A DNA stretch of 64,000 nucleotides from Patescibacteria group bacterium (GTDB lineage Bacteria > Patescibacteriota > JACPGU01). The position numbers were made by a program, and so were the translations under genes. Under the pieces are notes generated by a model. That model worked only from the letters and a program-made list of their open reading frames with translations, searched no databases and was not told the DNA's origin. The first letter of the stretch is position 1, and the number at the start of each line of letters is the position of its first letter. This document shows, in pieces, positions 670 to 55,500 of this stretch. The DNA is taken from contig JAKLDG010000001.1 of the NCBI GenBank assembly GCA_022703645.1, positions 338,814 to 402,813 of the forward strand. Reading direction: 5' to 3'.

Positions 670-1221
670 ATGAAATCAAGAAAACAAAAAATCAATAAAA
701 CAACAAATCAAATGAGCATGCAAAAATTCTTTCCAAAAGGAAACCCAAAACCAATTTATGGTAAGATTGCAGATTATGTAAAACAAGAGAAAGAAGAAAG
801 AGGCCAAAAATTTCTTACGGTTTGTCCTAAATGTGGCGCTATCCGCGAGAAGAAAAGATGGTTTTGGGATTCTGAGATAAAAGAAAGTAAACGGGTAGAG
901 CATACCGAGGTACTATGCCCTGGTTGTGAAGCGATTGAAAATGAGTGGATTGAAGGTGAAATAACCCTAAAAAACAAGGTTTTACAAGTAGTCCCTTGGC
1001 AAATTGAGGAAATGATAAATGATATCGAGGAAAAAGAAAGGCATGTAGATACAAAGAATCGGGTTGTAAAAATTAGAAAATCCAAGACCTTTTGGAAAGT
1101 GTATACTGCGAGTGTTTTTTTGGCTGAGAGAATAGGAAAGGAACTTGATCATTCTTATAATGGCAAAACTCATTTTAAGTGGTCAAAAGGGGATAAATCC
1201 CTAAATGTTATCTGGGAATAG
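670..1221 (+). CDS. zinc-ribbon protein, NMD3-like (COG1499-type, common in CPR genomes)
   Basis: two CxxC pairs (CPKCG...CPGCE) in N-terminal half, Lys-rich; resemblance to NMD3 family N-terminal domain is by motif only. Confidence 0.4.
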   Translation: MKSRKQKINKTTNQMSMQKFFPKGNPKPIYGKIADYVKQEKEERGQKFLTVCPKCGAIREKKRWFWDSEIKESKRVEHTEVLCPGCEAIENEWIEGEITLKNKVLQVVPWQIEEMINDIEEKERHVDTKNRVVKIRKSKTFWKVYTASVFLAERIGKELDHSYNGKTHFKWSKGDKSLNVIWE

Positions 1222-1288
1222 CGAAAACCAGCAATAAATAGAGGCTCAATATACTCAGCTTTGAGTCTTTTTTTTTATGAAAAAAGTA

Positions 1289-1317
1289 TTGACATATTAT
1301 AATATTTATGATAAAAT
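1289..1317 (+). promoter_or_regulatory. sigma70-like promoter (TTGACA -17- TAAAAT) for 1352..2254
   Basis: TTGACA at ~1289, 17-nt spacer, TAAAAT; GGAGG Shine-Dalgarno 8 nt before ATG 1374. Confidence 0.45.
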
Positions 1318-1351
1318 TAAAGTATAAAAATAAATACCCTAAATATATATT

Positions 1352-2254
1352 TTGGGGATAGGAGGAATAAATATGAAAAGAAGCAACATAACAAAAAAAG
1401 TCGTTATTTTACTGGTTGCGATATCGGTCCTTTTTACTGTTTTTGGTACTTTTCCAAGTTATGCTGGAGCCGCAACTATATTGCCAAGCGATACTTTCAC
1501 GGTCGGGATATTAAATAAAGGTACTTACGGGTACCTTGGCGGAATTTCAAAGAACAGTTCAAAGTCGCTTTCTGCGCGAGTTTATAACTTTTCAACGGGT
1601 AAGATAGCTGATGACAGAAACATTACTTATAAATGGACTGCGGTTGCTCAAGACGCGTCATACAATGGAAGATTAATTTTTAATTTTACAAACCCAAATT
1701 CTCGTAATACAACTTTAAAGATCGTTGATGCCAGCAATATTGGAACAAACGCCAAAATAATCGTAACCGTTAAAGCATATAATTCAGGTGGTTTAATTGG
1801 TTCAGATAGTGGATATTTTGGTGTTTCAAAATTTACGGATAGTTATGACAAAACCCCAAAAACAATTGCCGTTCAAGTAAACAACATTGCTTATGCAAAG
1901 AATATGGTTGTGAATGTAGGTTATAAAGGAGATATCTTGATTGACGCAAGAGTTTTGAATGGTAGCTATAAAGATATGAGTTCCAACTATGACTATAGAG
2001 TTGAGATAACTAATAACCCAAAAGGGCTTGATCTCGATCCAAGAGATACAAAAACTTATGATGCAAAATTCCGAGTATATTCCGCAAATGTTCAAGACGC
2101 GCCGCTGACACTAAAAATTTATGCAGTTAGCAAGGTTGATCCATATCTATCAAAAACCAGTTATGCGTATATAAAAGTAAATGTATCTGGAGATGCTGAT
2201 ACTAAAAGAAGCATACCAAGTAAAATCAGTAAATGGTTTAAGAAAGTATTCTAA
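1352..2254 (+). CDS. secreted hypothetical protein (signal peptide, beta-rich, no recognised domain)
   Basis: ORF track; N-terminal signal peptide VAISVLFTVFGTFPSYAGA; probable true start at MKRSNITKK (1374). Confidence 0.5.
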   Translation: MGIGGINMKRSNITKKVVILLVAISVLFTVFGTFPSYAGAATILPSDTFTVGILNKGTYGYLGGISKNSSKSLSARVYNFSTGKIADDRNITYKWTAVAQDASYNGRLIFNFTNPNSRNTTLKIVDASNIGTNAKIIVTVKAYNSGGLIGSDSGYFGVSKFTDSYDKTPKTIAVQVNNIAYAKNMVVNVGYKGDILIDARVLNGSYKDMSSNYDYRVEITNNPKGLDLDPRDTKTYDAKFRVYSANVQDAPLTLKIYAVSKVDPYLSKTSYAYIKVNVSGDADTKRSIPSKISKWFKKVF

Positions 2255-3129: not shown

Positions 3130-4070
3130 GAAAAAGATATCTGCTACTATTAACATTATTAATAGTAGGTGGTTTTTGTATTTTTTCACGCGATAAAGCT
3201 TATTCCAGCGCTTCCGCCAAGATTTTTTATGGTGAAAGTTTTATGAAAGAAAACGGTTCCGAAACAAAACTATCGTCTGTCGATAGCGTCGAAATACCAT
3301 TTCAAAAAGAGGGCGCAAATGAACATGTTGCTATAAAAGCGCAAACTTATATTGCAGCTGATCGCGCGACTATGACGCCATTACTTGAAAAAGATGCTGG
3401 AAAAAAGGTCCAAATTGCCAGTATCACAAAATTGATGACCGCCGTTATCACGGTTGAAAACTCAAAACTGGATGATGTGGTTACGATTAACAGCACATTT
3501 AAAGACGCTCCGGATGGCAGAATGGGGCTTTACGTGACAGAAAAAATTACAGTTGAGAATATTCTCAATGGTTTGCTTATCTCTTCTTCAAATGATGCTG
3601 CTGAAGCTCTCGCATATTATATCGGGAAAGGTAATTATAAGTCTTTTATTCAAATGATGAATACAAAAGCGGCTGAAATTGGGATGAGTAATACGCGTTT
3701 TTCGAACGCTATGGGACTTGATAATGGCGAAAACTACTCAACTCCACAAGACCTGGTATATCTAGCAAATTATGCTTTAAAGAATGAATTTATTGCTAAA
3801 ACAGTTAAAACTCAAGAAAAGAGAGTAAAGAATATTGAAGGAACAAGCACTCATTACCTGAAAACTACCGACGAATTGCTCGCTGATAAAGACTTTGAAT
3901 TTTTGGGTTTGAAAACCGGTTCTACACCTGAAGCGGGGGAGTGCCTTCTATCTTTTGCGAAAACAAAAAACGGTCATGAAATCATAACCGTTGTGCTTGG
4001 TTCTATGGATAGGTTCGGTGAAACCAAAGAAATTGTAAAATGGGTAGATGCAAACATTACTTGGGAATAA
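3084..4070 (+). CDS. dacA: D-alanyl-D-alanine carboxypeptidase (serine-type, PBP5/6 / peptidase S11 family), membrane-anchored
   Basis: SxxK (SITKLMTA), SxN (SSSND) and KTG (KTGST) active-site motifs; N-terminal TM anchor; 46-nt overlap with upstream gene. Confidence 0.8.
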   Translation: MAKNKSKRHKKVFRIRKRYLLLLTLLIVGGFCIFSRDKAYSSASAKIFYGESFMKENGSETKLSSVDSVEIPFQKEGANEHVAIKAQTYIAADRATMTPLLEKDAGKKVQIASITKLMTAVITVENSKLDDVVTINSTFKDAPDGRMGLYVTEKITVENILNGLLISSSNDAAEALAYYIGKGNYKSFIQMMNTKAAEIGMSNTRFSNAMGLDNGENYSTPQDLVYLANYALKNEFIAKTVKTQEKRVKNIEGTSTHYLKTTDELLADKDFEFLGLKTGSTPEAGECLLSFAKTKNGHEIITVVLGSMDRFGETKEIVKWVDANITWE

Positions 4071-4434
4071 GGTTTTTCCGCAAGTTTTTCAGTATTCCTT
4101 TTATTGTCGCGGGGAGTGTAGTTTTGGTACAAGTATAGTCACAGTATCCTAATTTAAGTAGTTCTCCCCCCTTCTTTTCAAAGGATGTGGGTATAATAAT
4201 TCTTACTTTAGGGTTTTTTTCGCGGATTTTTTCAACTAATTCTTTATAACGAAATCCGCGAATAGCGTCCTTTGAGGTGTACTTCAAAACGATAATGTCA
4301 TACTTAAATTCTTCCAAAACGCTTATATCCTTATTACTTCTTTTGAAAAAGATATCATGTTCCTTTAGTGAGATTGCATAGTGGGCTCGATAATAGTCCT
4401 CTCGTTCAACAATCAAAATCCCTTTCTTTCTCAT
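4057..4434 (-). CDS. atypical receiver-like domain protein (CheY fold lacking phospho-acceptor Asp)
   Basis: (beta-alpha)5-like pattern ILIVERED...DIIVLKYTS...KVRIIIPTSFEKK; Lys in place of the conserved phospho-acceptor Asp. Confidence 0.4.
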   Translation of the reverse strand: MRKKGILIVEREDYYRAHYAISLKEHDIFFKRSNKDISVLEEFKYDIIVLKYTSKDAIRGFRYKELVEKIREKNPKVRIIIPTSFEKKGGELLKLGYCDYTCTKTTLPATIKGILKNLRKNLIPK

Positions 4435-4526: not shown

Positions 4527-5219
4527 TTACAGGTTTTCTTGCCAAATGTCAAGAGCAATCCTTGCTGCCTCCTGTTCCGCAGCTTGTTTTGAAGACCCGG
4601 TTCCATCGGCAATCTTTTTATCTTCAAGATAAACACCCATTACAAAAACTTTTGCATGGTCTGGGCCCGATTCTTTTTCAACCTTATAGATTGGTGTAAT
4701 ACCTACTTTTTCCTGGGCTATTTCCTGAAACTTCGATTTTGGATCATAGTAAAGTTCCTTTGAAATAATCTCCGGTAAATAGGGAATTAAATACTTTTTA
4801 ATAAATTTACCCGCTGCCTCATACCCTTGATCAAGATATATTGCGCCAAGTACTGCCTCAAAGGTATTAGCAAGTATTAACTCTCTTGCTTTTCCAGTAG
4901 ACCTTGATTCTCCGCGCGATAGGAGTAGGTGGCTTTCATAACCAAGTTCCTTTGCTATTTTTGAAATCATAGTTCCTCTTACCAATGCCGCGCGCCAGTT
5001 TGTCAATTCTCCTTCAGGATTTGGGTAATTATTGTATAAATAGTCTGTAACAATTAATTCCATACATGCATCGCCAAGAAATTCAAGCCTTTCATTATGA
5101 TCAAGCTTGAAATCTTTATTTTCATTCAAATAGGATCTATGTACAAAAGCCTGCTGGAGTAAATCTTGATTCTTAAATTTTATACCTATTTTCTTTTCTA
5201 TTTCATTTAAATTGCTCAT
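4527..5219 (-). CDS. rnc: ribonuclease III
   Basis: RNase III signature ERLEFLGDA, dsRBD-like C-terminus; 230 aa. Confidence 0.9.
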   Translation of the reverse strand: MSNLNEIEKKIGIKFKNQDLLQQAFVHRSYLNENKDFKLDHNERLEFLGDACMELIVTDYLYNNYPNPEGELTNWRAALVRGTMISKIAKELGYESHLLLSRGESRSTGKARELILANTFEAVLGAIYLDQGYEAAGKFIKKYLIPYLPEIISKELYYDPKSKFQEIAQEKVGITPIYKVEKESGPDHAKVFVMGVYLEDKKIADGTGSSKQAAEQEAARIALDIWQENL

Positions 5220-5306
5220 TTGAAATTCGCTTTGCTGAAATTCTAAGAAATTGAGGAAATTCTAATATCTAATTTCTCCAATTTCTTTTAATTTCTATTA
5301 ATTTTA

Positions 5307-6152
5307 TTATTTTAGTCTGCCGATATCTTCTACTGCCTTTTTGAATAAATCTACTAAGTTTGGATAATCTAGGTGATTCAAAACCTCTCCTTCTTCCACC
5401 CATTTAATTTCTTTAATATGAGCTTCCGGATTAATTATAGTATTTACCTGAGTAGTTCGTATAAGATAGAAGTGCACGCTTTTTTTGATAACCTCTTCGC
5501 CGCTTTTATCAGTAAATTTAATTTCGCCAACTTCACCAAGAATTTCAGCCTCAGTTATACCTGTTTCTTCTTGAATTTCTCTTACAGCTGCTTCTTGCCA
5601 AGTTTCTCCTTCTTCAACTTTACCTTTTGGAAAAGTCCATTTATCATAAGGGTTTTTGACAATTATAAAAAAGTTTTTCCCATTTTCTACGCGGTATATT
5701 ATTCCACCAGCGCTAATTATCAAGTTTTCTTCTTCATACTTACTACTTGCGCGGTAAATTGTTCCCAATACACCATTAATGAACTTACCACTGTTTTCTC
5801 CGCCAAATTCCTTACCAAGCTCCACAGCCTCATTAATAACCGCTTTTGGAGGCACTTCTGCATCATAAATCAACTCATAAATACCAATTCGCAATATAGA
5901 GCGGTCAATAGTGGCAATCTGTTCAAGAGGCCATTCGGGAGCAGTCTTTTTGATTAAGTCATTGATCTCTGATATTTTTTCCACCGTTCCTTTTATAATC
6001 TTACGGCAAAATTCCTCATCAACCTTAAAACCGGAATTTTCAATATTCCGTTTTAAAATTTCAGCAATATCTCTTTCTTCATCAAAATCCCACTCGTAAA
6101 GAGATTGTAAAACAACCATTCTTGACTGATGTCTAATAGATAGGTGAGACAT
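5307..6152 (-). CDS. nusB: NusB antitermination factor fused to a C-terminal Nudix hydrolase domain
   Basis: N-terminal ~137 aa NusB-like (LQSLYEWDF...INGVLGTIYR); C-terminal Nudix box GKVEEGETWQEAAVREIQEETGI. Confidence 0.75.
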   Translation of the reverse strand: MSHLSIRHQSRMVVLQSLYEWDFDEERDIAEILKRNIENSGFKVDEEFCRKIIKGTVEKISEINDLIKKTAPEWPLEQIATIDRSILRIGIYELIYDAEVPPKAVINEAVELGKEFGGENSGKFINGVLGTIYRASSKYEEENLIISAGGIIYRVENGKNFFIIVKNPYDKWTFPKGKVEEGETWQEAAVREIQEETGITEAEILGEVGEIKFTDKSGEEVIKKSVHFYLIRTTQVNTIINPEAHIKEIKWVEEGEVLNHLDYPNLVDLFKKAVEDIGRLK

Positions 6153-6509: not shown

Positions 6510-6545
6510 GTAAAAAAACCGCCTTTTGGGGCGGTTGGGGTTTTT
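6510..6545 (-). terminator. rho-independent terminator (AACCGCCCC-aaaa-GGCGGTT + T-run on minus strand)
   Basis: GC-rich stem with A-run/T-run flanks between transposase gene and rpmF. Confidence 0.55.
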
Positions 6546-6578: not shown

Positions 6579-7040
6579 CTAAGCTCTTTTTGCAATATTC
6601 TTAGGGTTATTCATATCCCGACCCCACGTTGATGGATTTGATTCTATATAAGAATAAATTTCATCGTAAGATTTTTCATTGCGGATAATGTGTTCATAAT
6701 AGTTGCGTTGCCAGATACGATTTTCAAATGGTATTAATATATTTTGTTTAACCCCATCAATGCATTTTTTCGTTGTTAGTGATTTAAAACGTTGAATTAT
6801 TTGCGGCAATGACAGTTGTTTTTCTGTAGGGGCAAACCCCCGTGTTTGCCCGTTTTTAATTGGGCGGACACAGGGGTCCGCCCCTACGATACAGATAATC
6901 AAATGTATATGATTTGGCATAACAGAAAATATATCTACCTCGATATTTGAATAATACTTTGGGATTTCTTCTATCGTTTGGAAAATTATTATCCCAATAT
7001 CATTCAATCTCATCCCTCCATCAACAATTTCTCCGAACAA
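6579..7040 (-). CDS. IS200/IS605-like tyrosine transposase with RAYT-like C-terminal motifs, N-terminally disrupted copy (nonsense at codon 2 of the full-length frame; TTG internal start)
   Basis: HxH motif (MPNHIHLI), C-terminal WQRNYYEHIIRNE...YIESNP resembling the RAYT tyrosine-helix motif; full frame extends to ATG ~7145 but codon 2 is TAA; paralog at 20626..21183. Confidence 0.6.
   Translation of the reverse strand: MFGEIVDGGMRLNDIGIIIFQTIEEIPKYYSNIEVDIFSVMPNHIHLIICIVGADPCVRPIKNGQTRGFAPTEKQLSLPQIIQRFKSLTTKKCIDGVKQNILIPFENRIWQRNYYEHIIRNEKSYDEIYSYIESNPSTWGRDMNNPKNIAKRA
6826..6887. repeat. REP-like doublet: GTAGGGG-[GGGCAAAC..GTTTGCCC]-spacer-[GGGCGGAC..GTCCGCCC]-CTAC, embedded in-frame in transposase ORF
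   Basis: two GC-rich 8-bp-stem hairpins bracketed by GTAGGGG/CCCCTAC inverted termini, ~60% GC in ~35% GC background; translated as ...VGADPCVRPIKNGQTRGFAP... Confidence 0.7.
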
Positions 7041-40723: not shown

Positions 40724-41056
40724 GTGGGAGTGGAATTACGACGGGTGGAAGGTTTTATTAATTTTATTAAAGAGCAGGGGGTTGTCGGGTTAGCTGTTGG
40801 TTTTATTCTCGGCGGCGCAGTATCAAAAGTTGTTTCGGCTCTCGTAACAGATATTATTAATCCATTTATTGGGTTAGGGCTCGGTGCGGTAGGGGATATT
40901 AAATCCGCTTCTTTTTCCGTAGGTTCGGCTACGATTCTTTATGGAGATATGATTGGCGTGGTTATTGATTTTCTTGTAATCGCGCTCGTTGTGTATTTTG
41001 GAGTTAAGATATTTCGCTTTGACAAGCATGATAAAAAGCCGGTTAAGGCAAAGTAA
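40724..41056 (+). CDS. mscL: large-conductance mechanosensitive channel (GTG start)
   Basis: GFINFIKEQGVVGLAVGFILGGAVSKVVSALVTDIINPFIG closely matches MscL TM1 region. Confidence 0.8.
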   Translation: MGVELRRVEGFINFIKEQGVVGLAVGFILGGAVSKVVSALVTDIINPFIGLGLGAVGDIKSASFSVGSATILYGDMIGVVIDFLVIALVVYFGVKIFRFDKHDKKPVKAK

Positions 41057-42919: not shown

Positions 42920-45001
42920 ATGATAATAAAAAAGAAAGTAAAAAATGAATTTTTCTTCGGATTTATTTCTGTTGCTGTTCTTGTTCTTTTTTTGGGAATG
43001 CTTTCCATGTTTGCCGCCAGTAATGTCGATACCACGGTTAATATAATTTCAGCTGCTCCGGCAATTACTTTTTTTACTGCGACGCCAACATCTGTGAATT
43101 CGGGGGATTCATCGCTATTAACATGGAATTCTACTAATACAACATCTTGCAATAGTAGTGATTTTGCAACAGGCGGCGCGATTAGCAACTTGATCGGTGT
43201 TCCAACTGGCGCGTTAACCACTGCAACTACCTTTACTATTACTTGTTCTGGTCCTGGAGGTCCTGACGCAACTAGTAGCGTTACGGTAACAATCTCCGCG
43301 GGTGGCGGACCATCTTATACTTCTACCCCCCCAACTCCAACTGTTCCAAAAATTACTTCTTTTATTGCGACGCCAGCTCTAGTTGATTCTGGCGGATCAT
43401 CCGTGCTTTCGTGGACTTCGCAGGATGCCACTTCTTGTAGCAGTCCTGATTTTTCAGTTGGATCAAGCTCAAATACAAACGGTTCTATTACATTAAATAA
43501 TATTACTTCAAATAAAATATTTAATCTAATTTGCACTGACGGAATCAGCTCAGACATGGCTAGCGTGGAGGTAAAGATTAATGTGGTTCCAATATTAATC
43601 GCAAATAAGACTTTGGTTGCCCCAGGTGATAGCATTTCTTTGAGCTGGACTGCGGCCGGGGCTGCAGTATGTACCGCTTCGGGAGTTGCTGGTTGGTCCG
43701 GTAGCAAATTTGTTCCAAGCGGAGCGCAAGATGTGGTTTTACCAAGTTCCCCGGGTATTTATGTTTATACACTAACTTGCGATGAAAGTTCAACTTTTGT
43801 AACGATAAACGTTGGATTGCCGCCGGTTTTTATCAGTTTTAATTCAAATAAAACTACTACTGCTCCCAGTGATACCGCATCACTCGCTTGGGATGTAACC
43901 GGAGCTGACACCTGCGAGGCTTCCGGAGCATCTGATTGGAGCGGAAACAAATCTTTATCTGGTACAAGTAGTATAACTTTACCAGACACTATTGGGTTTT
44001 TCTCATATAAATTAAGCTGTTCAAATGTATTTGGCTCTATCAGCCGTACGATCAATATCAATGTTTCAACTGCTGAAAAACCTCCAATTGAAGAACAACC
44101 TCCAATGCCAATTACTAACCCAATAGAAGTTACTAAACCAACTGAAGAAACATTTGGCGGCGCAGGCGGCGGTATTGAAGTAACGATGACAACCGAAAAT
44201 CCTCAGATAGAAATTGGGGCATTGGGAACAACCAAAATATCCTGGACTTCCAAAGGAGCTGATAGCTGCAGCGCTTCGGGTGTTGACGGCTGGGCAGGAA
44301 ACAAGCCAGTTAATGGAAGTGAAACTGTTACAGTTCCGGCTGAAACCGGAATCTATACTTATGTATTGACTTGTGAAAATCAAAAAGGACAAAAAACAGT
44401 TGCTTATGCTAAGATTACCGTAACCGAACCAAATAAAATTGAGGGTTTTTTCAACATCATAGAATCAGAAATCATTCCGGAAGCAGCGGTAACGTCTGGT
44501 GAAGTTTTGCAATATGTTCCAACCCCATCTGAAATAATAGACAAGCTAGGCCTGACGGAAGCTTTTTTGATTTCTGGTCCGCCAAAAACATTTGCGCAGA
44601 ATGTTTTATCCACTATCATTGCCGCTTTGTTGTTGTTGATGGTCCTTTACTTATCGATTTTATACTATAAAAATTCCAAAAACTGGGGTTATATCTTTGA
44701 TGCAGATTCAGGTCGCGCCATATCGGACGCAAAAATTGAAATCCGCAAAGCGTCCAATGGCGAGATACTCCAAACGACTTTATCCGACCATAAAGGAAAG
44801 TTCAGATTTATTTTAAAGAATCTTAAAGATGGGGATTATATTGTTGCGGTTGAAAAAAGAGGGTATCTTTTTCCATCCAAAGTTTTTGGAAGAAAGACTA
44901 CAATACCAAAATTAGTCTATCTCGGAAGAAAAACTAAATTGATTATTAAAAAAGGATTTAAGATGAAAATTCCTATCGACCCAATATCAAAACAAATATG
45001 A
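42920..45001 (+). CDS. secreted multi-repeat surface protein (5-6 Cys-containing Ig-like repeats, Pro-rich linker, C-terminal TM + carboxypeptidase-regulatory-like beta-sandwich)
   Basis: repeats of ..SGDSSLLTWNSTNTTSC.. type; TM (IIAALLLLMVLYLSILYY) followed by NWGYIFDADSG...GDYIVAVEKRGY. Confidence 0.6.
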   Translation: MIIKKKVKNEFFFGFISVAVLVLFLGMLSMFAASNVDTTVNIISAAPAITFFTATPTSVNSGDSSLLTWNSTNTTSCNSSDFATGGAISNLIGVPTGALTTATTFTITCSGPGGPDATSSVTVTISAGGGPSYTSTPPTPTVPKITSFIATPALVDSGGSSVLSWTSQDATSCSSPDFSVGSSSNTNGSITLNNITSNKIFNLICTDGISSDMASVEVKINVVPILIANKTLVAPGDSISLSWTAAGAAVCTASGVAGWSGSKFVPSGAQDVVLPSSPGIYVYTLTCDESSTFVTINVGLPPVFISFNSNKTTTAPSDTASLAWDVTGADTCEASGASDWSGNKSLSGTSSITLPDTIGFFSYKLSCSNVFGSISRTININVSTAEKPPIEEQPPMPITNPIEVTKPTEETFGGAGGGIEVTMTTENPQIEIGALGTTKISWTSKGADSCSASGVDGWAGNKPVNGSETVTVPAETGIYTYVLTCENQKGQKTVAYAKITVTEPNKIEGFFNIIESEIIPEAAVTSGEVLQYVPTPSEIIDKLGLTEAFLISGPPKTFAQNVLSTIIAALLLLMVLYLSILYYKNSKNWGYIFDADSGRAISDAKIEIRKASNGEILQTTLSDHKGKFRFILKNLKDGDYIVAVEKRGYLFPSKVFGRKTTIPKLVYLGRKTKLIIKKGFKMKIPIDPISKQI

Positions 45002-46476
45002 AAAAAACAACGTTTAAAAAAATAGCCTACTTATTTTTGTCCACATTGATTTTTTGCGCTCTGATGACGCCTTTTAGCAGCTATGCGGCTGATTTGGCCA
45101 AAAAAAGCGGCAACAATTTTGGTATTACAAGAATTTCTATCGCGGATACTGATTATCCTTTAACTATTTCTATTTCTTCGGATAAAAATATAGTATTTAA
45201 TAATGGTTTAGACATAGCAAATTTAAAAGTTAGAATCGCAAATAGTAAAAAACAAGGCATTTCTGGAATTAATATTAAATTCAGTTCAGGCGGTAGGGAT
45301 ATAATTAATCCACCGGAAAATACCACAGACAATAATGGCATTGCATATTTCAAAGTCAGTTCTACCCAAGAGCATATCTCCAATTTTCAATTTAGCCTTA
45401 GAGACCCTACCAGCGGTGAGATTTATTCAAGTAATGTGGTAGCAATAAAGTTTTTGAGCCAAAGCCGCTTTAGTATGACCGTTAACTCTATCGCGGATTT
45501 CAAAAATAATACCGCCACAAAAGAGGCTGCTGCTTATGTTGTCGCTCCTGCGGCTACAGCTGTAATCGCCGTAAGCGCCTTTTCTCCAATTATTAATTTA
45601 TTAAGTTCTATTTTCCCATATTTGAATTACCTATTTAACGTAATATTACAGTTTTTTGGTATCAGAAGAAAACAAAAACCTTGGGGAATACTTTATGACA
45701 GCATGACAAAAGAGCCGATTGATCTTGGCACTGTCAGATTATTTGACGCAAAAACAAAAAATATCGTTCAAACCGCAACAACCGATAAGTCCGGAAGGTT
45801 TGGTTTTCCACCTTTATCAGGCAAATACTATTTAACAGCTGCTAAATACCAGTTTGGGTTTCCTTCAAAATTACTAAAAGGAGCGGTAGTTGACGGTAAA
45901 TATCACGGTTTATATTTCGGAGATAAGTTTAATTTAAAAAAGAATCAAAAACTTACTATTTCTGTACCAATTGACTTAGCAACCGCGGTAACTGCTCGGT
46001 TAAGATTGATAGACAGACTAAAAGCATTTTCAGAAAAGATATCGCGTCCTTTTTTGGTGGTAAGTCTGATGGTCACGTTGGTTATGCTTTGGATAAATAC
46101 AACCCTATATAATGAAATATTGATCATACTATATATATTGATGATTCTTACTATGAGGCGCATTCGCACATCAGCCATTATTCCATGGGGTATTATTTAT
46201 GATTCAAAGACTAAAAAACCGCTCAAGAGTATGCCGATTAAAGTATTTGATAAAAAATACAATAAATTGTTGGAAACGCGCGTCAGCGATGAAGCTGGCA
46301 GATTTACTTTCATATTACCGAAAGGGGAGTATTATTTCAAAATTGCTGATTTTCATTATCAGATAGATTTAAAAGCAAAAGAGTTAGGCGGCAATAAAAA
46401 CTATCATGGCGAGATTTTCAAGGTAGAAGAGAATGAGGTTTTAAGGTTTAATATTCCATTAAAAAGTTTAAAATAG
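44998..46476 (+). CDS. surface protein: signal peptide, Big_1-like Ig domain, then two TM/basic/WGI(L/I)YDS/carboxypeptidase-regulatory-like modules
   Basis: TTDNNGIAYFKVSST (invasin-like Ig motif); repeated RRKQKPWGILYDS.. and RRIRTSAIIPWGIIYDS.. modules; 4-nt overlap with upstream gene. Confidence 0.55.
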   Translation: MKKTTFKKIAYLFLSTLIFCALMTPFSSYAADLAKKSGNNFGITRISIADTDYPLTISISSDKNIVFNNGLDIANLKVRIANSKKQGISGINIKFSSGGRDIINPPENTTDNNGIAYFKVSSTQEHISNFQFSLRDPTSGEIYSSNVVAIKFLSQSRFSMTVNSIADFKNNTATKEAAAYVVAPAATAVIAVSAFSPIINLLSSIFPYLNYLFNVILQFFGIRRKQKPWGILYDSMTKEPIDLGTVRLFDAKTKNIVQTATTDKSGRFGFPPLSGKYYLTAAKYQFGFPSKLLKGAVVDGKYHGLYFGDKFNLKKNQKLTISVPIDLATAVTARLRLIDRLKAFSEKISRPFLVVSLMVTLVMLWINTTLYNEILIILYILMILTMRRIRTSAIIPWGIIYDSKTKKPLKSMPIKVFDKKYNKLLETRVSDEAGRFTFILPKGEYYFKIADFHYQIDLKAKELGGNKNYHGEIFKVEENEVLRFNIPLKSLK

Positions 46477-46500: not shown

Positions 46501-49500
46501 ATGATTGTGGTAAAGAAAAAGAAAATACCTTTAAGACCGTTTTTAATCCTCTTAGTGTTAATAGCTGGGTTTACTTTGAGTTTGGGTTTAAAACCAAATG
46601 AAAAAATAAAAGCGGCTTATTCTAATCCTTGCAAGACAGCTGGCACGTATGCTGGTTATGTAGTTGACGCGAATCTTAATGTTATTATTCCGGCTTACAA
46701 TAATGCTGTGTTTGGTGACACTTTCTATGATAGTACCAGCAAAGAAATTCATTGTAAAAGCATAACGATAGAAACGGGAGCGACTTTAGATATATCGCCA
46801 AAAACTACCGGTGCAAGTAAAACAGGCGGCACAAATTATAGAAGATTGGTTCTTGATGGTGATTTGAATATCGCAAGCGGTGGAACGCTAAATCTATATG
46901 GCGGCAATATATATAATACCGGCGGACTCAATGGCACTGGGATAACAAATGATGGAAAAGGATATGGTATGAATGTTATGGTTGGTGGAAATGTTTTGGT
47001 TGAATCCGGCGGATGGATATCAGCTGATGGCAAAGGGTATGAACATAGTAAGGGGCCGGGAGCAGGTGTGGCTGAACCCGGTTCACAAGGCGCTGCATAT
47101 GGTGGGGCTGGTCCGGATGGAACCAATTGTTATGGGAAATATTACGGTTCGGTTTCTGACCCGATAGAACTCGGCAGCGGCAGTAGTTTGGGAGTAGGAG
47201 GCGGAGTAGTTGATATAACTGCCGCGGGAACAATATTAATTCGCGGCGTAGGCAAAATTACGGCAAACAGCATTGGAGAGGGATCGGGCGGTTCAGTAAG
47301 ACTCAGCGCCAATACTATTAGTAGTACAATTGACGGCGTAAATATACCTTCTATTACAGCAAATGGCGGTAGTGGGTCTTATTACAGTGGCGGCGGCAGA
47401 ATCGCGCTTTTTTATAATTCATCAAATTTTGGCGGTGATATCAAAGCTATTGCTAACGCCTATGGAGGAGCTGGCACTGTATTCAAGAAAAAAAATATCG
47501 AGGCTTATGGTGATTTAATTATTACAAATAATTATCAGGATCATACCGATAACCCTCCGGACTATACTCCATATGCATATACAAAAATTGGCAAAACAAA
47601 AATCGATTCTGGCACATATAAGAATATCACAGTTAATAAAAGAGCAAACGCTATTATTGAATCTAGTAATATAGTAAACATCAATGGTGGTACTTTTGAA
47701 GTAAATAATTCCAAACTTGAAAATAAAGGCACTTTAGCTTCACAGACTTCCGCAGAAAAATTTCTGGCGAAAAATACCGCTCGGATACTTAATAGCGGTA
47801 CAGGGTTATTTAGCCTGTCCGCGAACTCAAACGCTATATTTGACGGCATAGACACTTATTTTGAGAACCAAAATAATATTATCCAAAATTTCGCCAATTT
47901 AACTATCTCTAACGGGGCTGTCATGAGCCATGCCGTCAATGATGCTACCGGTGTGACAAATTGTCTTAGGAATTCAATTGATAATCCAGTTGGCGGCGCG
48001 ATCCCTCCTTGCGAATATAAGGATTGGGGTGATGGCTATGGGAAACATTGGAATCAAAAATATACCTTAAGGATAAATGCCACAAGTGTTAATATTGATA
48101 ACAAAAGTTCGATAGATGTTTCACAAAAGGGATTTCAAACATTACCTGGAACATCAGGTTTTGGGCCGGGAGGGTCAAGTACGGCTTACTCAATCGGTGG
48201 TTACGCGGGAGGTTCTTATGGTGGCAGAGGTGGTAACGATAATACTGGGGGAGTAAGCGCAGATATTTATGGCGACTCGGATGGAGACCTGAATAATCCA
48301 AATGATCTGGGAAGCAGCGGTGATACCGGCTATACTGCCGGAGGATTAGTAAGAATAACAGTTTTGGGCGATATTGTTAATAATGGCTCTATATTATCAA
48401 ATTCAGGTACGGTTTCAAATGGTTTTGCCGGTGGGTCAGGAGGAGGCATAAGATTGGATGCAGACCGGATTCTCGGAGCTGGAAAAATTTCTGCCAACGG
48501 CATGCCCGGAACGATAGATCTTGCGAAAGGCGGCGGAGGAGGCGGAAGGATCGCGATCACATACAAAACCACAAAAGATTTTTATGGTCCAATTACCGCT
48601 TATGGAGGGTCTACTGATGGGGGACCCGGTACGATACTTTTTGCAAACAATAGCTCGGGAGCCTTAATTGATAAAGAACTTGTTATTTCTAATTCAGTTT
48701 TAAACGACAATCCAACCAAAATAGGAGGCGGTACGTATAAAAATATTACCGTAAAGAATACCTCGCCAACTCTTACTGACCTGACTTTAGCCGCAATCGT
48801 TTCTGGACAATCCGTTGTCATGCAAGATGGTGGGAATTTTGAAGTTAACCAAACTAATTTAACTAATAGCGGAACTATTTCTTTATTAGCCGGAACGTCA
48901 AATTTAGTTATAAAGGGAAAATCAAATTTTATTAATATCGGACCTACCGCCTCTCCTGGCATTAACGCGAATAGTACTTCTAAAGTTATTTTGGACAATG
49001 CCAATTTTGAAAATAAGAATAATATTGAACAGAATTTTGGCAATCTTTATATCCAGAATGGAGCAATATTAACGCATACTCAAAATGATTACTTAACGGT
49101 AAATTGCGTGAATACTTCCTGTACCAACCAAGACCTGGGTGATGGCAATGGAATGCATTACAATCAGGCTTATACATTAAGAATACATGCAAACAATGCT
49201 TTAATTGATAAATTTAGCGCTATTAATGTTGATGGCAAGGGCTATGACATGGGTAGAGGACCGGGTAATAATGGGTCTGCTAATTCTGCCGGAAGTTATG
49301 GCGGAGCTGCGTCAAGCGGCGACAGTACCTATGGTTTAGCGGATAACCCTAATGATTTGGGCAGTGGAGGTTATTCCGGTAGTTATGGTGATAATACCGG
49401 CGGCGGTTTAGTAAGAGTTAGGGCAGACGGTAATATAACAGTTGATGGCTTTATTTCTTCGGATACAACATCTGCCGGATCTTTTGACGGCGCTTCAGGA

Positions 49501-52500
49501 GGCGGTATAAAATTAATAGCAAATAGTATTCTTGGCTCCGGTTCTATTTCCGCTAGTTCTAATTTGACAAGCGGGAATATTGGCGGAGGTGGCAGAATAT
49601 CTCTCATAGCTACGCAAAAAAATTACAGCGGCACCGTCTCTGTGAATAGAGGTGGAACTGGAGCGAATTACGGTACTATTTATGATTCTCTGGCTATCCC
49701 TACGACTTATGGTCCGAGCGCAACACCATTAACTTATAATACAAAATTAAGTAATAATACTCCATATATAAAAGCCGATAGTTCAGCAACAACGATAGGT
49801 GTTGATGAAGGCAATGCAGTTAGCACTGGATATACTCCAGATTCTGATACCTCACTTCTTTTGAAAATGGATAACTGGGGAGATGGTCTTATTTATGATT
49901 CTTCCGCAAAATCAATACCTGTTATTAAATATGGCACAACTTCCTTCTCTGATACTGTTTTGAAAACTGGAACGCATTCACTATTATTTAATGGTTCCAC
50001 AGGTCGTTTAATACCTGATGGTACTTTTACATCAAATTTCCAGTATGGCACCGGAGCTTTTACTATTGATACTTGGATTTATCCAAAATCTGTTACGACA
50101 CTTCAAACAATTTATTCTCAAAAAAATAGCGCGACACCAACAACTAATGCATCATCATTACAAATTACTACTACCGGTCAGCTAAAATATACTGAAAATG
50201 GAGTTTCTATTATTTCTCCTGTCAGTACTATAAAACTAGGCAGTGATGTCGGATGGCAACATGTTGCTTTAGTTAGAGATAATTTAGGGGTTGAAAGATT
50301 ATTTTATAATGGTTCCGTAGTAGGAACACAGTCGTCTACATACTCCAAATTCAGCGATGTCGGTATCGGATGTTTATACCAGTCTACTAATACATTATTT
50401 TATAATGGCTATATGGATGAGTTCCGTATCAGTAAAGGAGTGGCGCGCTGGACCTCTGATTTTATTCCATTATCTGATGATGGCAACTGGGAAAAATTAA
50501 ATTTGAGAGCAACAAGGACTAACCCTAGCTCCGATACTAAGCTTTTGCTTCATCTCGATGGAACAAATGGATCAACTACCTATACTGACAGTTCTCCTTC
50601 AAACCATACAATATTGCGTTACAACACACCAACAATTTCCACTAACACTAGTAAATTTGGCGGCGCGTCAGGCGCTTTCCCGAGAGTAACCTCTCCATAC
50701 TTTGATTATATTTATGCTAATGATAATGTTAATGATTGGACTTTTGGCGCGGGTGATTTTACGATAGATTTTTGGGCTAACTTTTCAGATAATGTCAGGC
50801 AAGGTGTTCTTGCCATCGGCTCCGGCGCTTATGCTCCAATTGCTTTTGAAGTAGTAAGCAACAATCTTAACGTCTACATGACTAGTAATGGTAGCAGTTG
50901 GGATATCGCTAGCGGTCAACCAGTTGGCCAAACATTTGGTCCGGTAACACCAGGCGTTTGGGTACATTATGCGCTAACAAGGAATGGAAATACTTTTTAT
51001 CTTTTTGTTAATGGTACTACTGTAAACTCTTTTATGTCATCATTAAGTTTATGGAATAATAGCGGCGCTTTATATATAGGGCAATATTTTGGGTCTGTTA
51101 CAGCCTTTAAGGGCTATCTGGATGAATTTAGAATTATAAAGGGAAGAGCGGCTTGGAGTAATAATTTTACTCCTTCTACAACTCCCTATGAAATTTATGA
51201 TGACCCGTCTTTCAATGGAACGGTAGATATTGGCATAATAGATAATCTTGCAGGTGAATATGTTTTTTCCGGCTGCAACGGAGCGAACTGTACTTTTTCA
51301 GATTCAAAAGTTACAGCGAGATTCATAAATGGTATTGCTAATTTAGCAGTAAAAGTAAAAGACAAAAGAGATGGGCAGATAAAGCATCACGGTTTTTCAG
51401 GGCTAAAAATTAACTCCGTTTCAAATGTATCTTATATAAATAATAATCAAATAACCGGAGCTATCGAAATTCAAGATAGAACCCCAGAAAGATCAATACC
51501 ATCAGGTCCTGCCCCCGCAGGAAGTATTACTAAAGGAACTGCTGGCGCTACTATTTTTCCAATGGGAGCCGGTTTTAGTATTATAAATAATTCCAAAGGA
51601 ACCAGTCAGAGCCAACAAGATTTGGGTGGTAATTTAGTGGTTCGAGGTCCATTAGCATCCGCGCCATATCGTCTTTACCTTGATAAAAACATAATGTATA
51701 AAAGAGGTGATTATTTGAATAGCGACGGAACTATTAGCAGCGTGGCAACAGATTATCAAGTGGTTTGTGTTAATACAGCGGACTATACCCAAACAAAAAT
51801 AAGATGTAATGATGATCTGAGCACCAGCGCTATTCCATCAGGATTGCGAAATTATGGTATATATACATTTAATAAAACTTATAATTTCTATACCCAGAAC
51901 GAAACCTCTAATTATTCAGCGCCTTCAATATCTCAAGTTCTTATACCAGCTAGCAACCCAACTGTGCCTGTTATTTCTCCTTTAACAATAACTCCGACTA
52001 ACGGAAAATTAAATCTCAGCTGGAATAATCCAATTGATAATATCGGGCAAACAAAAACTTTGATCGTTAGAGGTATCGATAGTATTCCTACTTTCGTTCC
52101 AAGTGATGGGACGGATTATAATACCTGGTCAAATACTACTGTAACCGGAGAAGAGATGATCTATGACAGCACTAATGTCGGGGCGGGAAGTGAAGTAAAA
52201 AACTTTGACGATGCCAATGTATTTTTTGGAACCAGATACTGCTATACAATCTATGCTCAATATATTGGTTATATTTATTCGGTAGGGACTTCTGCTTGCA
52301 GCACTCTAACATCAATTATTGATCCGCCAGTCAACCCAACTATCACGATTCAAGGAATGATGATAAATATCGGATGGACAGCGCCACCTTCCGGCAATCC
52401 TGATAATTACCTGATTGTTAGAAAAAAAGGCACAACAGAACCAAACTGGAATCCAACCGGGGAAACTGCTGACTATAATATTGGTGATACGGTTGGCGAT

Positions 52501-55500
52501 GGTGTTGTTGTCTGTAAAGGATTTTCATGCACTGATCAAAATGTAAATGTAAATACTTTGCCAACCCAGTATTATTATAAAATTTATGCTCAGTATGGAA
52601 CCGCGGCTCCCTTCAGTTATTCTGTCGGTTCAACGGCAGTAAGCGGAAATCCTAACCCGGAAAACCCCCAAAAGTTTGATAATACCAATGAAGCAACACC
52701 AAGTGTAACACTGGACAATCTATCAGGACCTTACACGCCTCTTAATACATTTAAGATTGCAAATTATCTTGTCTGGAAAGCAACAACTCCGGCTGATTGC
52801 TCAGGGGCTTGGACGCCAACCAATGGAGCTGACTATTCAGGAGTGCAAGGAACTGGAAATATCATTTACAAAAACCCAGCAGCGCCAATATCATATATTG
52901 ATACTGCAGTTACAAATGGCGTTGGTTATTGTTACAAAATCTTTGTCCAATATAATGGTGAAACAATCAATACTACTGATCTAATGTATTCTTCTGGATT
53001 AAGTCTTTGGACTCAACCGCCAAATCATAATCCAACAATTAGCGTAAATAGCATCACCCAAACGATCGGCACGGATAATGTGGTAATTAACTTTAATGTA
53101 AATGATATTGATCCATCTGATAATGGCAAGCTTTCTGTTGGCTTTGCTGTTACAAATCCGGTTTCAGGATGCAGTATTAGCACTTTAACCGGACCAATAA
53201 CTAACCTCGGTGTCGGAGCTCATAGCGTTACTTGGACCGCCACTACCACTAATGGAACCGCGGGGGATTGTCCAGGCGTAGAAATGTTAGCCGGTTCTGC
53301 TCAACTGACAGCCACTGTTTCCGATTTTATCGGAGCCACCGGTACCGCTAGTCCAACTTTCTCTCTTGACACCAAAGCTCCCATTGCAAGTTCCAGCCTT
53401 ATTTTGTCCTCCAAAAACAGCAACTCCATTACTGTCGCTACCGGAGCTACCGGGGCTACTGATGGAAACATAAAAACTACCGCTGCCTATAAAGTCTATT
53501 ACAAGCAAGGATCAACGGTAGACGAAGTAAGCGGTACGCAAATACTACCAAATATTAATAGTTATGTTGCGGGACAGATATTTACTGCTTCCTCGCTAAT
53601 AACTAACCAGCAATATTCATTTAATATCTGGGCTTATGATAACTATGGACATAAAACTGCTGCTACGGTATTAAATGTCAGCACAAAAGGAAAATCTGTT
53701 ACAGGATTTACAGCTATAGTTCAAGGTATGAGAGTCCATCTGAGTTGGGACGCAATGCTGCCGGCGCCAGATAAGCATCTGGTTATTCGTAAGAAAGGAA
53801 CATCCGCGTCTACTTGGACGCCAACAGATGGTATTGGAATATATGCTGCTGGCAACACGGTAGATGCAGATACGATAGTAGTTTACCATGGCACAGGCGT
53901 CACTCTGGATGATGATGCAGTTGATGGAGCAGCCTATACCTATACTATCTTTGCCAACTATTCTGGAAATCTATATTCAGAGGGGGTTTCAGCTCCATCG
54001 ATAACACCGAATGCTCTGAACGCGTCGTTATCTGCTCCTGCCTATATACCAAATGGATCAAATTATGATATCGCACTCAACTGGGTAGCCCCCACACCAA
54101 GTTACAGTTTACAAAAATATGTAGTAGTTAGAGAAGTTGGGTCTCCTACTTGTTTAATCGAATGGACGCCAACCAAGGATAATAACTATAATGCATTAGA
54201 TCCAACCGGCTTTACTAATGAAGAAATTATCTATTCCGGAACCGGAACCACTACTACTGATAATATGGGAGGAACGGGAGTTTCTTCTGGTACAAATGTT
54301 TGCTATAAGATCTTTACTCAATATCTGGGAGATGATTTAGCGGTTCCAACAAACTTAGTTTATTCCGCTGGAATTGCCGCTACCTATGTACCGCCAAATC
54401 TGCCTCCAGAGATAGAGATTGGTTCAGTCACAGCGCTACAAACTACCGGAACTGAAAATATTGTTATAGCTTACCGTGTTAGAGATTCCGACTCAACCAA
54501 TTTGAATATTACATTTAGCATGATTGATCCGGGAGGCTCCACTTGCCAAATGAATTTAACTGATAATTTGGCGGGGATTGATGGCACTTACTATACTCAT
54601 ACCGCTACTTGGAATGCAGGGCTGGCAGGAGAGTGCCCGGGATTTGAAGTAACAAATGCTGTTATCCAAGTAACTGCCAGCGATAGTCTTAATTCTGTTT
54701 CGCAAAACTCCGCTCCATTTCTGCTTGATACTCTATCCCCAAGGCTTCCAACTCCAACTGTTTCTAACTTTAATTTAACTAATTTTTCATCAACAGGAGA
54801 TAAGATATTCTTCAATCTAGGATCTAATTCAACAACTGATACTAATGCGCTTAACTACAAGATATACTATGCTTCTGGGGGAAGTGTTGATGAAACAGGA
54901 ATACTCATAACAGGAGCTCCTATAGCATTTACTCCTGGAGCTGCATATTCGGTAACCGGATTAACACCGGGACAAAACTATACATTTAATATTTGGGCTT
55001 ATGATAAATATGGGCATAAAACTTCTGCGACTTCCGTAACATATTCAACTATTGTGCCTGCTCCGGCAAGCTTCTCTGTAACTCCGCATGGAATGAGATT
55101 ATCACTTACTTGGACGGCTCCTGTCGGTGGAACCCCAGACTATTATCTGATAGTTAGAAAAGCTAATTCAGATCCAATAATAGCTCCCGCTAATGGTTCT
55201 ACATACAACCTGGGGGATATTTTGAGCGGGGGAATGGTAGTCTACAATTCAACCGGGACAAGCCTTGACGATGATAATATTGATGACGGTCCTTACTATT
55301 ACCGAATTTATGCGCATTATTCAAATGGCAATTTCTCACCAGCCTTGGCTGGCAATGCGATTGCAGTGGCGGAAGGACCAAATACATTCAGCGCAACCTC
55401 AAGCCCAGCGCCAGTAGTCACATACATAGACACTCCACCAACAAATAATTTCAGTTTCGAGAACTATCTTATTTGGAAGAAAGAACAACCTAGCTGTACT

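Follow-up and report, generated by a model that had tools for sequence, protein, structure and literature searches.

A Nudix domain joined to NusB upstream of RNase III in Patescibacteria

NusB is among the best-studied bacterial transcription factors; in a complex with ribosomal protein S10 it recognises the boxA element of rRNA leaders as they emerge, and it accompanies the moving RNA polymerase. To our knowledge, no NusB with a Nudix domain has been characterised, and no enzymatic or ligand-binding appendage of NusB has been described. In a 64,000-nucleotide stretch from a Patescibacteria group bacterium (contig JAKLDG010000001.1, positions 338,814 to 402,813, hereafter the window) we encountered a gene, at 5307-6152 on the minus strand, in which NusB is followed within the same open reading frame (ORF) by a Nudix domain resembling the hydrolases of diadenosine tetraphosphate (Ap4A). 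The two parts are ordinary; what offers a testable lead is their combination, their placement ahead of rnc, the RNase III gene, and the retention of a nucleotide pocket in relatives that have lost catalysis.

Several described systems bear on this protein. In Ap4A hydrolases a P1-phosphate site (His/Lys, Lys, Tyr and Lys) is accompanied by an adenine sandwich, formed by a loop-5 tyrosine about 17 residues past the Nudix box and a second tyrosine or phenylalanine (PMC4734340, PMC2425470). Activity on RNA 5' ends, which as far as is known is shared by every class of Ap4A hydrolase, has been described for human NUDT2, which converts PPP-RNA to P-RNA (PMC8616924), and for RppH and ApaH (PMC7044304, PMC8833179) and YqeK (PMC13010140), which remove nucleoside-tetraphosphate (Np4) caps. 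CFIm25, a Nudix protein of an RNA-processing complex that is without two catalytic glutamates, binds Ap4A at 2.4 uM and leaves it unhydrolysed (PMC2425470). In the antitermination machinery itself, Escherichia coli SuhB has an inositol-monophosphatase fold and is built into the rrn antitermination complex as one of its integral components (PMC6614797). The NusB fold also occurs in RsmB/Sun, where a NusB-like N-terminal domain is joined to a 16S rRNA m5C methyltransferase, and matches to the NCBIfam RsmB model are seen for the protein described here. RsmB illustrates that a NusB fold can direct an attached enzyme to rRNA, although its NusB-like domain is a paralogue and not the housekeeping NusB.

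The fusion protein and its two domains

The gene consists of 281 codons and a stop, begins with ATG, and has no internal stop in the ORF list or in the DNA as read. Its product is 100% identical to NCBI entry HRY60333.1, a protein from an 867-kb contig of "Patescibacteria group bacterium" whose name, "transcription antitermination factor NusB", makes no mention of a second domain. A first-pass annotation, made from the letters alone, had described one uninterrupted reading frame with a NusB-like module of ~137 amino acids and a Nudix hydrolase with a clear Nudix box. This description is borne out, both Pfam domains lying above their gathering cut-offs: PF01029 (NusB) matches residues 8-134 with 118.2 bits over profile positions 1-133 of 133, and PF00293 (NUDIX) matches residues 156-261 with 71 bits against a cut-off of 21.1. 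The nusB equivalog model TIGR01951 of NCBIfam, which has a cut-off of 88.35 bits, gives 131 bits. The box itself, GKVEEGETWQEAAVREIQEETGI (residues 177-199; 5556-5624, minus strand), is canonical, agreeing with GX5EX7REUXEEXGU at all specified positions, and is recognised by family conservation as well as by this motif. Gene calls differ at the start: the JGI call (P0001, 270 residues) begins at Met12 and drops R7-H8-x-x-R11, whereas the 281-residue NCBI call uses the ATG at 6152. Because R7-H8-x-x-R11 is nearly invariant we favour the latter, with 6119-6152 as probable coding sequence.

It could be supposed that a sequencing or assembly error, through a missed stop codon or a frameshift, has joined two adjacent genes, as nusB and nudix are truly separate genes in some relatives. 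However, the same 281-residue product is found in independent NCBI, JGI, ENA and Logan assemblies, the junction is shared by over 100 clusters of fusions at 90% identity and by dozens at 50%, and the ORF contains no ATG codon after Met12 at which a separate Nudix protein might evidently begin. An artefact is ruled out by the identity of the product across assemblies together with the more than 100 homologous fusions, and we regard its probability as vanishingly small. A stop codon between the domains, which the first-pass annotation had named as the sign of two adjacent genes, is absent here and is the natural state in some relatives; such split genes argue for a functional linkage and not against one.

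A search for the combined architecture in other genomes, as that annotation had proposed, was productive. Among the best 120 matches in an index of 5.8 billion proteins, ranging from 100% down to 37% identity to the fusion protein, PF01029 and PF00293 are present together in 119; the sole exception, P0110, has a degenerate Nudix half. When the representatives of clusters at 50% identity were searched exhaustively, some 55-60 of the top 150 proved to be full-length fusions. The fusion is not lineage-specific, as had been suggested, and extends across many Patescibacteria groups: the source names of homologues include Microgenomates, CPR2 and Komeilibacteria, and Paceibacterota-type groups are also represented, while in Saccharimonadia-type genomes the two domains are encoded by adjacent genes. 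No paper on a NusB-Nudix architecture was found in a literature search. We conclude that NusB-Nudix is a genuine, ancient and widespread two-domain NusB of Patescibacteria that has not yet been characterised, and that its second domain is hidden in thousands of database entries named only "NusB". Six NusB homologues of 214-298 residues (P0146, P0167, P0182, P0191, P0194 and P0226) are alignable over the NusB half only; these carry other C-terminal extensions, which may represent further NusB appendages in Patescibacteria.

The NusB domain (residues 1-137; 5742-6152, minus strand) is all-helical and is delimited by Pfam, TIGR01951, PDB alignment, Foldseek and an AlphaFold (AF2) model, in which the seven NusB helices (residues 6-135) have a predicted local distance difference test score (pLDDT) of about 95. 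It aligns over its whole length with NusB of Thermotoga maritima (1tzt, E=1e-27) and E. coli (E=3e-19), and Foldseek gives template modelling (TM) scores on the target of 0.86 for 1tzv and 0.87 for 3r2c, with a root mean square deviation (rmsd) of 1.9 A. The full-length helical fold is the same as in the known NusB proteins of E. coli (3D3B/6TQN), T. maritima (1TZT) and Aquifex (3R2C). The fusion keeps the basic R7-H8-x-x-R11 segment and Tyr19, the equivalent of E. coli Tyr18, and its DRxxLR, NEAxELxK and KF(I/V)NGVL motifs show little or no variation; where E. coli has Asp118 the fusion has Asn, as does T. maritima NusB. What distinguishes it from known NusB proteins is the extra C-terminal Nudix domain of 140 residues. 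Within the fusion family R7, R11, D83, R88, F124 and G127, which we take to be S10 or boxA contacts, are conserved at 94-100%. The NusB half is predicted to bind S10 and boxA and to function in rRNA antitermination.

The Nudix domain (residues 144-281; 5310-5723, minus strand), an alpha/beta/alpha fold delimited by Pfam, PDB alignment and Foldseek, shows 33% identity over its full length to the Aquifex Ap4A hydrolase 3i7u (E=2.6e-15). Structural comparison with Foldseek gives a TM score on the target of 0.91 for both 3i7u (1.7 A) and the Thermus Ap6A hydrolase Ndx1 (1.6 A). The top PDB matches, on which phmmer and Foldseek agree, are 3i7u, 1vc8, 1kt9/1ktg, 9cxx and 4mpo; the proteins on which Foldseek superposes the domain include the Ap4A hydrolases of Caenorhabditis elegans and humans, CT771 of Chlamydia and, within mycobacterial MutT1/Rv2985, the Nudix part. 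By sequence and predicted fold the Nudix half is of the small asymmetrical Ap4A/ApnA-hydrolase type, represented by NUDT2, aq_158 and Ndx1. This assignment, and its position outside the curated RppH families, follows from the closest matches being Ap4A/ApnA hydrolases and from scores against the RppH, MutT, MutT1, NudC and NudE models that fall far below the cut-offs. Membership of all five NCBIfam equivalog families was accordingly rejected; the MutT1 model NF052459, for example, reaches 58.8 bits where 475 are required, with an alignment confined to the Nudix part (residues 146-268).

Comparison with NUDT2-type enzymes (Aquifex aq_158, 3I7U; Thermus Ndx1, 1VC8; C. elegans, 1KTG; human NUDT2, 3U53; and Chlamydia CT771) shows TM scores of 0.86-0.91 and rmsd values of 1.6-1.7 A at the level of identity given above. 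The fused domain shares with them the canonical box, the W-T-x-P-K-G segment before it, and counterparts of Lys36, Lys83 and Tyr121. Thus W172, K176, K224 and Y263 align with W32, K36, K83 and Y121 of the C. elegans Ap4A hydrolase, and K171, K176, K224 and Y263, which are 88-96% conserved, align with the positions expected of the P1-phosphate site; for the roles of Tyr76 and Tyr121 in the C. elegans enzyme we rely in part on PMC4734340 and PMC2425470. In contrast to the fused domain, which is joined to or adjacent to NusB, the NUDT2-type enzymes are stand-alone proteins of about 130-150 residues. In the fusions the loop-5 stacking tyrosine is not strictly kept, and catalytic glutamates are missing from a third of the family. 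From the canonical box and an adenine and phosphate pocket that appears intact apart from the loop-5 tyrosine, the window protein is predicted to catalyse Mg2+-dependent hydrolysis of the Ap4A/ApnA type, which for Ap4A yields ATP and AMP.

Other Nudix proteins provide partial parallels. The Nudix domain of MutT1/Rv2985 (9CXX, 5GG5) is a close match (E about 1e-10; Foldseek E=2e-10), and MutT1 too is a two-domain protein built on a Nudix domain of the Ap4A-hydrolase type, although its partner is a C-terminal histidine phosphatase. RppH enzymes (E. coli NudH, Bacillus subtilis YtkD 4JZU and Bdellovibrio 3EES) have the Nudix fold and box in common with the fused domain, but the similarity is weak (E of 1e-5 to 1e-6), RppH models give 21-38 bits against cut-offs of 116-259, and the fused domain is acidic, not basic; RppH-like action is what we propose, and not membership of that family. 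In NrtR and CFIm25 (NUDT21) the pocket is kept, the glutamates are lost and the partner is a nucleic-acid-directed one, a pattern that recurs in about a third of the fusions. Their partners (a winged-helix DNA-binding domain, and CFIm68/59) and their ligands differ, and the window protein retains its catalytic residues. Moreover no domain follows the Nudix fold here, unlike in NrtR, the protein ending at residue 281 within the last Nudix helix. The layout of a helical N-terminal domain followed by a Nudix decapping domain is also that of Dcp2, though by analogy only; a Foldseek match to Dcp2 spans 230-250 columns at an rmsd of 12-15 A, and whole-protein homology was rejected.

Between the two domains lies a linker of six residues, KYEEEN (138-143; 5724-5741, minus strand), defined by the AF2 secondary structure and by a dip in pLDDT to 85-88 at residues 131-150. 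The model as a whole has a mean pLDDT of 94.1 and a predicted TM score of 0.59, as would be expected if two rigid domains are probably held without a fixed mutual orientation by a flexible linker. The range of the linker segment across the fusion family, from 3 to 54 residues, agrees with this picture of a flexible tether.

Three states of the rpmF-nusB-rnc cluster

The gene lies in an rpmF-nusB-rnc neighbourhood, as the first-pass annotation had recognised, with all three genes on the minus strand. The rpmF gene (L32; 6161-6373; Pfam Ribosomal_L32p, 60.5 bits) is situated 8 nt upstream, and rnc (4527-5219; Pfam Ribonucleas_3_3 and dsrm) 87 nt downstream, both assignments being supported by synteny. 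We scanned GTDB species representatives for this locus and obtained at least 80 loci, those listed being all from metagenome-assembled genomes of Patescibacteria, to which the counts below refer. Three states were observed. In 34 loci nusB and nudix are fused as a single ORF encoding about 290-336 residues. Five loci of the Saccharimonadia type (L008, L041, L044, L049 and L071) possess a split arrangement, in which a Nudix gene of its own, read in a different frame and encoding a canonical box, stands between nusB and rnc; the NusB proteins of these loci have a low-complexity C-terminal tail rich in Lys, Pro, Ala and Ser, which reaches about 90 residues in L044, where it is longest. The remaining state, found in 41 loci, is a stand-alone nusB encoding about 142-190 residues, and none of the 41 has a homologous Nudix gene within 6 kb on either side of nusB.

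The surrounding order is common to all three states. An rnc match lies directly downstream of the stand-alone nusB in 37 of the 41 unfused loci; overall, rnc follows nusB or nusB-nudix in nearly all 80 loci and rpmF precedes it in most. Since the position between rpmF and rnc is the same in fused and unfused loci, the fused gene is an orthologue of ordinary nusB, and synteny indicates that it encodes the housekeeping NusB of the organism. Wherever it is present, joined or adjacent, the Nudix domain is placed between nusB and rnc, in all 34 fused and all 5 split loci, and the RNase III gene comes immediately after it. In a neighbour-joining (NJ) tree of NusB domains the fused, split and absent states group by clade, with at least 6 changes between them. 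The sequence comparison shows what appears to be an ancient module of Patescibacteria that is now fused, split or absent, and its occurrence both as one gene and as two neighbouring genes is a classic Rosetta-stone signal, which points to a functional linkage of Nudix with nusB.

A further locus, L081, is contained in a 920-bp ENA contig. It encodes at 342-764 a stand-alone Nudix protein of 140 residues (P0190) with a degenerate box (RKVRSALG), which shares 52% identity with the fused domain; the start of rnc follows, and the upstream ORF is unrelated and is not nusB. This arrangement may reflect a rearrangement or a chimeric short contig. Given so short a contig, its upstream ORF and the degenerate box, we rejected P0190 as a guide to the context of a stand-alone close relative, and it serves as another degenerate case.

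Conservation of the pocket and possible functions

In an alignment of 208 fusion proteins all four glutamates of the Nudix box are kept in 129 (62%), the window protein being one that retains them; at least one is lost in 79 (38%) and two or more in 38 (18%). The pocket is better conserved than the catalytic residues: W172 and W251 are each present in 97% of the fusions, K/R224 in 97%, K176 in 96% and Y263 in 94%, against 69% for E192. Even where two or more glutamates are missing, the pocket residues persist in 31-35 of the 38 proteins. In catalytically intact close relatives of the window protein the Nudix half shows 70-75% identity against about 80% for NusB and is thus nearly as constrained, which indicates that the domain is under selection. 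In P0017 and P0022, which belong to the window's clade and have undergone a catalytic change, the NusB half is about 81% and the Nudix half about 50% identical to those of the window protein. These patterns suggest that hydrolysis is selected in most lineages, including that of the window, and that the binding pocket is what the family keeps throughout. A purely enzymatic tethering of pyrophosphohydrolase activity to the transcription and translation machinery, as the first-pass annotation had envisaged, may accordingly apply to the window protein with its intact glutamates, but it does not extend to the family as a whole. Of the activities named there, the Ap4A/RppH-like group fits, with the Ap4A/ApnA hydrolases closest in sequence and fold and the RppH cut-offs unmet, and nothing in the analysis supports a clearance of (p)ppGpp.

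NUDT2, RppH, ApaH and YqeK all act on RNA 5' ends, and for this reason we favour, tentatively and at somewhat short of an even chance, a role of the fusion as a reader and hydrolase that NusB delivers to nascent boxA RNA, acting there on 5'-triphosphates, on Np4 caps or on Np4N in the vicinity. NusB bound to boxA would bring the tethered Nudix pocket beside the 5' region of the transcript, where the pocket would recognise a nucleoside-5'-polyphosphate, be it the 5'-triphosphate, an Np4N-derived cap, or free Np4N, which would otherwise serve as a primer for transcription. In the window's genome the Nudix domain would hydrolyse the recognised group with Mg2+ to give a 5'-monophosphate leader, which would be cleared after the precursor is cut by the RNase III encoded by the neighbouring gene. 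In the members without catalytic glutamates, roughly one-third, the binding step alone would remain. If so, binding at the transcription complex may be the conserved core of the system and hydrolysis an addition retained in the window's lineage. It is possible, though we hold this with considerable doubt, that the domain acts within the rRNA antitermination complex of Patescibacteria as a reader and, where catalytic, an eraser of 5' polyphosphates or Ap4A-type alarmones. Were this true, antitermination and the processing of rRNA by RNase III would be gated directly by RNA 5'-end chemistry or by stress alarmones, and we know of no Nus factor for which such a coupling has been described. A functional linkage would join three active fields, namely the study of rRNA antitermination complexes in their capacity as RNA chaperones, that of non-canonical 5' caps with 5'-end-dependent decay, and that of signalling by the alarmone Ap4A, and it would do so in organisms whose regulatory repertoires are minimal. 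With its fused, split and absent states, and its intact and degenerate forms, the family itself makes a ready-made comparative experiment.

A number of observations weigh against a 5'-end reader and hydrolase. The best RppH model, NF001936, gives 38.3 bits against 118, and TIGR02705 (YtkD) 36.9 against 154.4. The loop-5 tyrosine aligns with Thr214, with Phe213 adjoining at an offset of one residue; position 213 is aromatic in 56% of the family, and many members with intact catalytic residues have an aliphatic residue there. With an isoelectric point (pI) of about 5.1 (family median 5.4), the fused domain is acidic. The RNA-binding Nudix enzymes known to us, in contrast, are basic, although NUDT2 is acidic too. 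In an NJ tree of the fusion family the catalytic state changes at least 22 times, and this recurrent loss argues that hydrolysis is not a universal role. About half of the sampled Patescibacteria species are without the domain, which is therefore not essential for NusB function. Nor does the 64-kb window offer an rRNA operon: Rfam at gathering thresholds detects no RNA family (tRNA, rRNA, riboswitch or leader) in it, and matches to an E. coli-type boxA in the window are fewer than expected by chance. The sole near match, at 40764-40776 on the minus strand (TGCTCTTTAATAA), has 1 mismatch and is probably fortuitous; the 600-bp intergenic region that contains it precedes a gene resembling phosphoribosyl-pyrophosphate (PRPP) synthetase.

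An alternative is that the domain is a nucleotide sensor, which on binding Ap4A or a related alarmone alters assembly of the NusB antitermination complex and so couples rRNA synthesis to stress; catalytic versions such as that of the window would also destroy the signal and thereby reset themselves. The superior conservation of the pocket over the catalytic residues, its persistence where two or more glutamates are lost, and the maintenance of the domain through at least 22 catalytic changes all speak for sensing, as do the Foldseek match to the Nudix domain of NrtR (3gz8) and the precedent of CFIm25, to which Ap4A is bound without hydrolysis (PMC2425470). However, the four glutamates are intact in the window's genome and in 62% of the family, which argues that hydrolysis is selected in most lineages, and a flexible linker of variable length, with proteins that are separable, makes tight allosteric coupling less obvious; we consider a sensor possible but rather unlikely. 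An unrelated housekeeping enzyme, acting as an Ap4A/NpnN hydrolase on free dinucleotides and fused through loss of a stop codon without any coupling to NusB, would account for the small-molecule Ap4A and Ap6A hydrolases as nearest relatives and for the acidic domain with its pI of about 5. The variable linker and the natural split forms, which indicate that separate proteins can work, are also compatible with independence, and accidental fusion is favoured by the compact genomes of Patescibacteria with their overlapping genes. On the other hand, the order nusB-nudix-rnc is held across deeply diverged lineages, the Nudix gene is never found elsewhere in the 6-kb flanks, and a dead hydrolase should vanish from streamlined genomes, yet both domain and pocket are kept. 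For these reasons we judge an uncoupled enzyme to be unlikely.

It can also be envisaged that the Nudix fold is a structural accessory, a protein-protein scaffold of the antitermination complex after the manner of SuhB (PMC6614797), to which nucleotide chemistry would be incidental. Retention of the domain without catalytic residues would be explained in this way, but the most conserved residues line the nucleotide pocket, no alternative surface is obvious, and the domain is absent from half of the sampled lineages; a purely structural role therefore appears improbable.

The LeuRS insertion and other features of the window

A second Nudix module within 5 kb, inserted in leucyl-tRNA synthetase (LeuRS), had been reported in the first-pass annotation, and this insertion is real. 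The leuS gene (7161-10070, minus strand), 1 kb from nusB-nudix, has a NUDIX match at residues 407-506 (46.9 bits) that splits the Pfam match to the editing domain (CP1), with a canonical Nudix box, GGIEEGEDVVTAAKREVAEETGF, at 8757-8825 (minus strand). An origin of both modules in one recent acquisition is not supported. The LeuRS insert is 30% identical to the NusB-fused Nudix domain, which itself is 33% identical to the Aquifex Ap4A hydrolase, and its matches in the PDB are weak and generic; a recent duplication as the source of both modules was rejected on these grounds. The insert is present in L001 and L008, and absent in L041 and L071, which do have a NusB-linked Nudix. A search with the insert fragment in the index of 5.8 billion proteins gave 25 candidates and 1 match and was uninformative. 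The LeuRS insertion is unrelated in origin to the NusB-fused domain and much rarer. ApnA is produced chiefly by aminoacyl-tRNA synthetases (PMC4734340), so that the LeuRS insert and NusB-Nudix might conceivably share an Ap4A theme.

Between nusB-nudix and rnc the spacer contains an A/U-rich hairpin of 22 bp (5237-5295, minus strand; dG -17.8 kcal/mol, z = -3.08). It has no U-tract and ends 22 nt ahead of the rnc start codon, and may be an autoregulatory target or processing site of RNase III rather than a terminator; by a crude test, a structured region ahead of rnc (z < -2) is present in 24 of 73 related loci. Upstream, a 153-residue ORF (6579-7040, minus strand) with a weak match to IS200-like Y1 transposases (Pfam Y1_Tnp, 28.6 bits) sits between leuS and rpmF and breaks the leuS-rpmF-nusB-rnc order of relatives such as L001, L008 and L041; it is parted from rpmF by a bidirectional terminator-like hairpin at 6517-6536. 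A sigma-70 promoter scan around the operon returned matches at chance level (13 found, 11.9 expected).

The window is otherwise an ordinary segment of Patescibacteria chromosome with a GC content of about 33-44%, in which no other Nus factor gene was detected. It encodes a pseudouridine synthase, a D-Ala-D-Ala carboxypeptidase, methyltransferases, a histidine kinase, cysteinyl-tRNA synthetase (CysRS), a PilB-type ATPase, RadA, ClpB/C and giant surface proteins. ORFs without a Pfam match include one of 125 residues just downstream of rnc (4057-4434, minus strand), and a Cys-rich one of 183 residues together with a secreted-looking one of 300 residues at 670-2254 (plus strand). A single ORF at 46501-57534 (plus strand) encodes 3677 residues, probably a giant surface protein or adhesin, and is preceded by two ORFs (42920-46476) with Ig-like, CarboxypepD_reg and SpaA-type domains.

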